64,000 bases of DNA, taken from Cyanidioschyzon merolae (lineage: Eukaryota). Positions within the stretch are counted from its first letter, which is position 1. Each line of letters begins with the position of its first letter. Positions 21,715 to 23,445 of the stretch are shown here, piece by piece. The notes below the pieces were generated by a model that saw only the letters and a list, made by a program, of their open reading frames with translations, was not told where the DNA came from and did not search any database. The translations under genes were made by a program, and so were the position numbers. The stretch is from assembly GCA_000091205.1 (NCBI GenBank), contig AP006484.2. One strand, 5' to 3'.

Positions 21715-22634
21715 GCGTGAACCCCGGGAACACGAATATCGCAACCATCACAGCACCCAAGCGTGCAGAAGATGGTACTGATGGTAACTTGCGTCAGAAA
21801 GATATGCGTCTTTTGAGATTCTCGAGAGCGAGATACTATCGAGAATCCGGTATAATGAATGCAACGAAGAAAATCGAGACGAGGAACGCAGGAATGAGGG
21901 ATATCCTGGAAGCTATGAGCGAGGTGACGAGCCGCGGAGCGGAATTTCAAGCTTTTCGGGAGTTTATGGAAGTTCGTGTTGCCCATTGGGATGCGCTGTG
22001 GGAAGAATATACAAAGACCCGGTGGGCTCGTCTGTGTATGAACGTGCACTGTGGTAAGCAGCGTGCATTCGCGAACTTTTTCAATCACTTGAGCGCCCAC
22101 AAAGAAGATGAAAGTCAGAGGCTGTTAGTAGCATTCCGGGCAGAGCGCTGGAAGACCCAAAAATGGACTACGCCAGCTCCAACTACAAGAACGTTCAAGG
22201 AGTGCGCATGGCGTTTTGTTCCGATACCTGTAAATGAGTTCCGAATATCCTATACACACCATGAACTGGGATGCACACTTCAGAGGGTCGAATTGGAAAC
22301 GTGCCAGCGGAGCAATGAGGATATAAAAAAGTACGAAGCGCTGACAGAAGCGCTAATGAAAAGGAGGGCGAAAGTTCGTGGACTACTTGCGCTGGTGAGC
22401 GCAACCAATGATGGGAAAAAACGTATGGAGTTGGTGAACCGAGTCTTTAACGCAGCTATCAATATAAGGAAATGTGCGGTGCTGGAGAATAGACCTCCAG
22501 AGTGGACAAGAGAGAATCATACGGGGCAACCTCTCAAAGTGGAACGATATGAGAAAACGTTGGAAGCAGTAGTGGGTGGCCGGTCGAAAAAGACGGAGAG
22601 ACGTCTGCACGTCAGTTGGAGACGTCTTGTCTAG
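21585..22634 (+). pseudogene. Fanzor/TnpB-like RuvC plus degenerate zinc-ribbon segment; two of three RuvC acidic residues substituted (catalytically dead or decaying).
   Basis: - RuvC-I-like [15 protein letters not shown] (21705-21749; Asn at 21720-21722 where GIDxG has Asp).
- Fanzor-type YYRESG (21834-21851).
- RuvC-II-like PVNEFRIS (Glu at 22236-22238).
- HHELGC...ETC replaces the CxxC...CxxC zinc ribbon.
- RuvC-III NRVFNAAINI (22437-22466; Val where NRDxNAAxNI has Asp).

Spacing is I to II ~175 aa and II to III ~80 aa. Confidence 0.55.
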
Positions 22635-22707
22635 GGCGCGTTCGCCGCCACTACTCTACTCGGTCGGCGTCCTTCGCCTTTAGGACGGAGTTCGTTGGTG
22701 CTCGTTG

Positions 22708-23445
22708 ATGTTCGGCAGCAGCCGACGCGCAACGGTGAGGAAGAGCTTGTCTATTATCGAAGAGGATGAAGACGAGGCAGTCAGTGAATGCGACAGTCCT
22801 GCGGAGCTCCGGCACCGGATCACTGACGGACCGAGGAAGTTTGACGCTGTCGGAGTGACCGGTCACGGCGTGGAGAGCGACGAGTCCAGTGCTGGTAACG
22901 AAACGATGCCCTCGAGAGCACACAAGGTGCCACTCGGCCCGGTGGAGCAATCACGTCTGGGAACGAGTGCGCGCTCGAGACGCCAAGAGCAGCGCGGGCA
23001 AAACACTGACCAGATTCGTGAATTCCAAGTACGGTTACAGGAAACCCAAGATGCGCTGAGAAAAACTCAGGCCGAGGTAAGTATGCTCCGGGCTCACGTC
23101 TCGGCCCTGGAGATGGCACTGGAGGAGCGGAACACTGAAGTGCGGCGGCTACGTGAGCAGCTTGCATCCAGCGCACCAGGCGCTAGTGGGACTTTGAATG
23201 TACAGCAGGGGAAAGTGGCCTCGGCCGTAGGTCGAGACCTGCTCGGACTCTTAAGAAGTAGCCATGCGTCCGCAGCTGATTCGCCGATATCGATTTCCAC
23301 TGTCTCTGAGGGCGCACTGAAACCGTCGCTGCCATCACGACTTGTCGAGCTGCGCGCCAATACTTCTCCAACAGCGAGCTCATCTGCGTCGAATATCTTG
23401 CTAGGTACTCCAGATACTGGAAAATCTTCGATGGGCAAACGTTGA
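22708..23445 (+). CDS. Hypothetical coiled-coil protein (acidic N-terminus, heptad-rich centre).
   Basis: 246-aa ORF (ATG at 22708) with ...IREFQVRLQETQDALRKTQAEVSMLRAHVSALEMALEERNTEVRRLREQL. GC-rich like host genes. Starts 70 bp after the Fanzor-like ORF stop. Confidence 0.3.
   Translation: MFGSSRRATVRKSLSIIEEDEDEAVSECDSPAELRHRITDGPRKFDAVGVTGHGVESDESSAGNETMPSRAHKVPLGPVEQSRLGTSARSRRQEQRGQNTDQIREFQVRLQETQDALRKTQAEVSMLRAHVSALEMALEERNTEVRRLREQLASSAPGASGTLNVQQGKVASAVGRDLLGLLRSSHASAADSPISISTVSEGALKPSLPSRLVELRANTSPTASSSASNILLGTPDTGKSSMGKR

Follow-up and report, generated by a model that had tools for sequence, protein, structure and literature searches.

The question raised by this locus is whether a short interval behind a Fanzor-like gene encodes a guide RNA. 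The window analysed here (the whole stretch, 64,000 nucleotides of contig AP006484.2 from the red alga Cyanidioschyzon merolae) carries on its plus strand an open reading frame (ORF; 21585–22634) that resembles Fanzor nucleases and closes at the TAG at 22632–22634. The sequence tctagggcgcgttcgccgccactactctactcggtcggcgtccttcgcctttaggacgg follows directly 3′ of this stop codon, and ∼70 bases separate it from the next ORF, whose ATG is at 22708; an earlier note on this DNA had described these features correctly. The note had proposed that the region 22500–22800 holds an omega-RNA, the guide RNA of TnpB and Fanzor systems. At the level of the family, our analysis supports both its location and its nature: this is the right end, of omega-RNA type, of CMe-1A, a Fanzor1 transposon family that is already known. 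We conclude, with a probability of roughly 70%, that positions 22629–22700 are the right-end module of a dead CMe-1A copy, and that in functional members this module most likely encodes the omega-RNA scaffold.

CMe-1A is a Fanzor1 family of C. merolae named by Bao and Jurka (2013; PMC3627910), who described ∼150 copies that are ∼80% identical to a ∼3-kb consensus. In their account the element has no terminal inverted repeats, its target-site duplications and its class are left open, and its 5′ 635 bp are a separate element, TE-N2_CMe. The Fanzor-like ORF of the window is part of a dead copy of this published family. A word-indexed search gave 40 homologues (56–80% identity), all from JGI metagenomes, and a scan of the metagenome contigs gave more than 370 related stretches. 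We kept 80 loci; their 69 distinct right-end sequences represent 48 insertion sites, which count as independent because the flanks are unrelated. This is the pattern of a multi-copy, transposon-borne element. One locus, L003, matches the window without a difference over the query protein and at 98.5–99.8% identity in the DNA stretches compared.

Comparison of the 3′ region with all the loci by BLAST and MAFFT revealed that the similarity runs past the stop codon and is lost at ∼22700 in the 48 independent insertions, which come from hot-spring metagenomes. The homology extends ∼66 nt beyond the stop, ending in ...TTGGTG, and the flanks beyond it are unrelated between copies. We placed the right end at 22700 ± 8, i.e. 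0–8 nt before the ATG at 22708 and inside the interval where the earlier note had expected the boundary. The uncertainty of ∼8 nt has two sources: the length of the tail that follows the last hairpin is variable, and the first eight flank bases are A-poor. The junction is not sharp; this tail is T/G-rich and variable, and the point of divergence differs between close relatives.

In well-kept copies, the module folds into two stem-loops joined by a linker of 5–6 nt, all on the plus strand. The first, SL-A (22632–22653), was read from minimum free energy folds of the individual copies and pairs UAG-GGCG with CGCC-A-CUA across a variable loop, so that the stem has the stop codon at its base. The linker (22654–22659) has the consensus CUGUA-C, with columns at least 90% conserved among the 48 copies. 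The second, SL-B (22660–22700), is a long terminal hairpin of the form CACCGnnGG-CGUCGUUCGA-CUU-UCGAACGGCG-UUnnUGGUG, defined by folds and covariation. Mean identity to the majority base is 0.88–0.90 in the SL-A stems and the linker, 0.58 in the SL-A loop, 0.67 in SL-B and 0.34 in the flank. The module thus lies 3′ of the nuclease ORF, ends at the right end of the element, and is conserved up to that point and variable beyond it, as is characteristic of omega-RNAs. Four of the well-kept copies reached folding z-scores of −2.7 to −5.5 and were 11–15 kcal/mol more stable than their own reverse complements. Over the 48 independent copies the median z-score was −1.5, and the plus strand was the more stable one in 35 (Wilcoxon p = 6e-5). 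This bias towards the sense strand is the pattern that G-U pairs give in a selected RNA.

In four copies (L035, L074, L072 and L013; e.g. L074:5007–5012), the first flank bases (TGCGGT, TACGGT, GTGTGCG and CGTG, respectively) are complementary to the linker and the start of stem 2 (ACTGTACAC) and lengthen the terminal hairpin. This complementarity may reflect a longer or templated right end.

We built a covariance model (R1) of SL-A and the inner SL-B hairpin from 19 copies, with the window left out. R1 gave 92 matches in 83 sources and matched the window only at 22629–22700 (51.4 bits, E = 2e-13). In the two modelled helices, 81% of the cells were paired, compared to 29–66% when the partners were slid. 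Double changes were found at 12 of the 17 pairs against 7.4 in shuffles (2/500), and the number of cells with a double change was 25 against 13.0 ± 2.9 (0/500). The signal was strongest in the inner part of SL-B, where all 10 pairs showed compensatory changes and only 0–4 of 500 shuffles reached the observed covariation values. Five subfamilies (L042, L006, L005, L046 and L030) have unrelated sequences at SL-B that still form perfect hairpins. For SL-A, 88–89% of the cells were paired, compared to 34–48% in the slid controls. The earlier note had named covariation across paralogous copies as a check of its proposal. The inner SL-B helix passed it, but SL-A, the outer part of SL-B and the helices proposed within the ORF did not.

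Several observations weigh against a scaffold function of this module. Double changes in SL-A were seen at only two of its seven pairs, with covariation not above that of shuffles; the outer CAC/GUG stem of SL-B is likewise conserved in its complementarity and showed no covariation. When 3′ tails were swapped between copies, the outer SL-B stem was no better with its own tail (−7.37 kcal/mol) than with a swapped one (−7.51 kcal/mol). As the copies are related by descent, their statistics are not independent, and an alignment based on a covariance model leans towards the modelled structure. Conservation of the primary sequence after the stop (0.76–0.81) is no higher than that at synonymous sites of the gene. 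Across copies, the stability of the right end is unrelated to the intactness of the ORF. Rfam 15 had no relevant match, either at E ≤ 1 over 19000–25000 or at gathering scores over the window. In the window copy itself the fold is unremarkable (z = −0.62; 57 of 200 shuffles as good). The terminal hairpin could just as well serve transposition as a signal in DNA, a role that may coexist with one in RNA.

The evidence also narrows the extent of the scaffold. RNAalifold on the raw MAFFT alignment of the 48 copies gave almost no structure, owing to indels between the subfamilies. Ribosum-scored RNAalifold proposed long-range helices reaching into the ORF, which we rejected. The ORF helices examined (22482–87/22495–500, 22580–85/22592–97 and 22568–79/22645–55) are 81–93% paired, with covariation not above that of shuffles, which is a further point against the proposal, and the last of them competes with SL-A. 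Over the final 180 nt of the ORF, conservation at synonymous sites is 0.84–0.88 against ∼0.82 elsewhere, a slight rise that is not distinctive. Since the ORF helices lack covariation and synonymous conservation is ordinary, the supported scaffold is ∼22629–22700 and not 22500–22800. The scaffold proposed in the earlier note therefore stands as a family-level fold after the stop codon, and its extension into the ORF does not.

The scaffold of the window copy has itself decayed. Two of its changes, G→C at 22656 (giving the linker CUCUAC) and A→U at 22660 in SL-B, hit positions that are at least 90% conserved. In the consensus register, four of the 10 inner pairs of SL-B no longer form, and what remains is a shifted 6-bp hairpin (22668–73/22682–87). 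The expectation that this particular copy would encode a folded scaffold was therefore not borne out, its fold being no better than that of shuffles. The window copy is a fossil, with a broken protein gene and a scaffold without a stable fold.

The protein side of the family was examined using its intact relatives. A profile search of 1.84 billion representatives yielded 2213 relatives of the family protein. The Pfam domain Cas12f1-like_TNB (PF07282) was matched by 13 of 70 wider relatives (best E = 5e-6), and weakly by the family members P0001 (E = 0.23) and P0040 (E = 0.035). Neither Pfam, for the ORF pieces of the window, nor the PDB, searched by sequence with the family profile, gave a match. 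We then modelled the intact relative P0002 with AlphaFold; a shallow alignment gave a pLDDT of 38, and the deeper alignment from the representative search gave a pLDDT of 84 and a pTM of 0.80. Foldseek ranked SpuFz (9CEY, 9CEU and 8GKH), PpFz and GtFz structures at the top (E = 1e-10 to 1e-13), with TM-scores of 0.59–0.61 to 8GKH/9CEU, followed by Cas12 variants and TnpB (8H1J). In this model, which concerns P0002 and the family rather than the broken window copy, the intact protein has the TnpB/Cas12-type bilobed Fanzor1 fold with a RuvC domain and is closest to SpuFz1. Codon positions 1 and 2 are conserved at 0.93–0.95 in the family, compared to 0.82 at position 3, which indicates that the family evolved under selection on the protein. 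Only ∼6 of the 45 copies examined have open C-terminal 300 codons together with all three catalytic motifs. As so few copies are intact and yet positions 1 and 2 lie far above position 3, most of the divergence must have arisen in lineages under protein selection.

The closest known system is that of SpuFz1 from Spizellomyces punctatus (Saito et al. 2023, PMC10432273; PDB 8GKH), whose omega-RNA was located by small-RNA sequencing, pull-down and cryo-EM. In this RNA, a scaffold of 75 nt lies past the stop codon and before the right end, with two stems, a 6-nt linker and no pseudoknot, and a guide of 14–15 nt is derived from the flank (PMC10432273). The protein contacts stem-loop 1 and the linker heavily, while stem 2 is free of contacts in its distal part, which is dispensable (PMC10432273). 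The CMe-1A module is similar in most of these respects: it has ∼70–75 nt, a first stem-loop, a linker of 5–6 nt and a long second stem whose 3′ strand would abut the guide, again without a pseudoknot. The near-invariance of the SL-A stems and linker and the variability of distal SL-B fit the contact pattern of SpuFz1, the protein that is also the best structural match to P0002. Both elements are of ∼2.1–2.5 kb with a single ORF and have short non-coding companions (ghost loci in Spu, TE-N2_CMe in the alga). They differ in that Spu-1 carries a CA/CATA motif and inverted repeats of 30 nt, a kind of repeat that CMe-1A lacks, and in that the stop codon is part of stem 1 in CMe-1A. The resemblance to SpuFz1 RNA is one of architecture, not demonstrated homology.

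By analogy with SpuFz1, the module of functional CMe-1A members would be transcribed and processed into an omega-RNA. Its scaffold of ∼70 nt would comprise the short stem-loop with the stop codon in its base, the linker of 5–6 nt and the long second stem, whose 3′ strand would finish at the transposon boundary. A transcript continuing into the flank would add a locus-specific guide of 14–15 nt, and the Fanzor protein, bound to the scaffold, would cleave guide-matching DNA beside a target-adjacent motif. In the window, the putative guide, if transcribed, would be the flank CTCGTTGATGTTCGG (22701–22715, plus strand), which overlaps the ATG at 22708 (by analogy with PMC10432273).

Other guide RNAs of this kind follow the same logic, as described for further Fanzors by Jiang et al. 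(2023; PMC10530073). TnpB omega-RNAs (reRNAs) of IS200/IS605 elements such as ISDra2 also arise at the 3′ end of the nuclease gene, run to the right end and take their guide from the flank. However, they overlap the ORF extensively and have a pseudoknot, whereas in CMe-1A only the stop codon is shared with the ORF; the evidence there supports neither a pseudoknot nor a helix inside the ORF, and the element has no TnpA. The GtFz1 and ApmFNuc RNAs (PMC10432273, PMC10530073) share with CMe-1A a conserved, structured non-coding 3′ sequence that ends at the right end. The GtFz1 RNA differs in overlapping 17 codons (PMC10432273, PMC10530073), and the ApmFNuc RNA reaches ∼200 nt past its ORF, with conservation extending into the coding region, so that the CMe-1A module of ∼70 nt is shorter. 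The paper on CMe-1A (PMC3627910) treats the same family but is older than the discovery of omega-RNAs and contains no description of an RNA, and our literature search found no paper on Fanzor RNAs of C. merolae. The right-end two-stem module and its covariation are thus added to the description of CMe-1A, of which the window copy is one decayed member.

An unlikely reading, though one with real points in its favour, is that the segment after the stop is a transposon end acting only as DNA: a subterminal hairpin recognized by an unspecified transposase as single-stranded or cruciform DNA, like the 3′ ends of IS200/IS605 elements or Helitrons, with no role as guide RNA. Such a hairpin is present, 7–11 nt from the element end. 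Consistent with this reading, CMe-1A lacks terminal inverted repeats or target-site duplications and has no settled class (PMC3627910), and the 5′ start positions of its copies vary. In addition, the tail after the hairpin is complementary in some copies to the linker 5′ of it. Such pairing is reminiscent of that between guide and cleavage-site sequences in IS608. However, none of the copies encodes a transposase. The only ORF of the element is Fanzor1 (trans-acting enzymes elsewhere in the genome were not searched), and every relative of it uses an RNA that comes from this very position (PMC10432273, PMC10530073). The many G-U pairs in the stems, the far weaker fold of the other strand, and a two-stem-plus-linker layout whose conservation matches the SpuFz1 omega-RNA contacts also speak for an RNA. 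Moreover, the two roles are not exclusive, as the RNAs of TnpB and Fanzor overlap the transposon end. We retain the omega-RNA scaffold as the preferred reading of the module.

It is improbable that the present importance of the segment lies in a role as 5′ untranslated or promoter-proximal region of the gene that begins at ATG 22708, with conservation at the locus reflecting that gene. This ORF of 245 aa (22708–23445, plus strand; an alternative TTG start lies at 22705) is a host ORF outside the CMe-1A element, taken from the ORF list and compared with Pfam, where its coiled-coil matches were weak. Its ATG is 8 nt past the right end (the end itself ±8 nt), so its 5′ leader must fall in the element, and any transcript of it starts in the element or crosses it. 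The exact protein and 12 relatives (≥90% identity) are found in hot-spring metagenomes; 11 of these relatives have 245 aa and one has 250 aa, so that the length is kept in 12 of the 13 cluster members from related strains. However, the same segment occurs at ≥48 unrelated loci with unrelated DNA downstream, which shows that the conservation belongs to the element. Nor is the ORF present in the NCBI annotation or the C. merolae 10D protein set (exact protein look-up).

A more far-reaching possibility, which we regard as highly improbable, would unite the omega-RNA scaffold with this gene. CMe-1A right ends, including those of dead copies, might continue to be transcribed, and Fanzor made from the few intact copies might load these RNAs in trans. 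RNA of this locus would then carry the guide 22701–22715 over the start codon of the conserved, unannotated host gene, and the relic might direct Fanzor binding or cleavage to the 5′ end of that gene on an empty or rearranged allele, or otherwise influence the gene. More broadly, CMe-1A might be an element without transposase that persists in a very small eukaryotic genome through RNA-guided homing alone.

The premise of the earlier note, a domesticated RNA-guided binder, failed when the gene was reconstructed. Three-frame translation against the family consensus placed the decayed Fanzor1 coding region at 20433–22634 (plus strand), from the ATG at 20433 to the TAG at 22634. The ORF 21585–22634 is the C-terminal fragment of this pseudogene, which the note had not seen. 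The former frame contains two in-frame TGA codons (21228–21230 and 21315–21317), a frameshift near 21316 and a second one, back into frame, near 21620. We considered TGA as a sense codon and rejected it, as frameshifts are also present and the nuclear genome uses the standard code. The family carries the D...E...D triad of RuvC (consensus GADPGNTN, VDEFRTS and NRDFNAAIN; relatives P0001, P0002 and P0006 read GADPG, VDEFRTS and NRDFNAAIN). In the window the motifs are GVNPG (D→N), NEFRIS (E kept) and NRVFNAAINI (D→V), so that of the three catalytic residues only the E remains. Orthologous loci of related strains (L003, L023 and L026) carry the first stop, the second frameshift and both mutated motifs in identical form, which indicates that the decay is old. 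A catalytically dead binder still using a scaffold and guide at 22500–22800, to which the replaced RuvC-I and RuvC-III residues, the largely open C-terminal half (an ORF of 349 codons) and the retention of the copy in related strains might point, is hardly credible, given that the stops and frameshifts preclude a full-length protein, that the lesions common to the orthologues are those of an old pseudogene, that none of the ORF pieces is annotated or recorded in the NCBI protein set, that most copies are similarly decayed with only 6 of 45 intact over the C-terminal region and the three motifs, and that the scaffold is changed at ≥90% conserved positions with an unremarkable fold.

The remainder of the element lies to the left. 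The Fanzor unit of CMe-1A occupies 20170–22700 (left end ∼20170, right end as above) and is joined to a TE-N2_CMe-like 5′ module at 19486–20169, part of the ∼3-kb CMe-1A consensus; both are on the plus strand (locus alignments; PMC3627910). Loci L023, L058 and L070 align to the window from 19486, and L069, L006, L078 and L082 begin further in, the 5′ starts of composite copies being 19486, 19531, 19608, 19728 and 19756. Other copies begin only at ∼20170; at least nine with unrelated upstream DNA start aligning at 20170–20173. The window segment 19486–22700 is thus a fossil CMe-1A/TE-N2 composite, neither a gene nor a domesticated effector. The TE-N2_CMe-like module terminates in the perfect palindrome GGACACGTGTCC (20126–20137), and its 3′ end is unlike the Fanzor right end (no R1 match). 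A(T/G)CGC stands directly before the shared GCTCG start in the window (∼20165–20175) and in L004, L010, L038 and L073, which have unrelated upstream DNA; to judge from the sequence, it may belong to the element as its final bases or represent a candidate target-adjacent motif. Among the fetched loci, we found no empty sites that would fix the exact ends and this motif. Solo right-end fragments (R1, 44 bits) with no recognizable Fanzor ORF occur ∼35 nt upstream of the TE-N2 module in L023 (1266–1339), L058 (1266–1339) and L070 (955–1029), and none is present at the corresponding place of the window.

Two further Fanzor-like remnants, at 27312–28043 (plus strand) and 62091–62447 (minus strand), are far more divergent (∼31% identity to P0001 by tblastn; E = 3e-16 and 4e-10, respectively). 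R1 finds nothing beside them, which assigns them to other families. Exact protein matches assign the window to strain 10D of C. merolae, on a chromosome of 457,013 bp. Neighbouring proteins with exact records are ATP-citrate lyase (BAM78932), a WD40 protein (BAM78934), CYME_CMB136C (BAM78935), signal peptidase (BAM78936), Cnx1 (BAM78940) and Nog1 (BAM78943); between CMB136C (15909–19199) and the signal peptidase gene (29513–30520) no protein is annotated. A 2406-nt inverted repeat (11028–13433 and 24809–27214, 99% identical) flanks an 11.4-kb segment that contains the WD40 gene, CMB136C, the TE-N2/Fanzor relic and the 245-aa ORF. The window also contains two tandem arrays: one of 16–17 copies of a 92-bp unit, mostly 92–100% identical, just downstream of the Nog1 gene (54872–56615), and a smaller one of four copies of an 83-bp unit (30666–31080).

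For the window itself, the practical outcome is one of annotation, including that the 245-aa ORF begins at the edge of the relic. The understanding of how Fanzors work is unchanged; the family-level RNA model is new in detail and expected in kind. By analogy with SpuFz1, the compact scaffold layout of that system would occur also in a red-algal Fanzor1. For an old Fanzor1 family, in an alga that is genetically tractable and has a minimal genome, the analysis provides a concrete and testable omega-RNA model: a scaffold of ∼70 nt made up of two stems joined by a linker.

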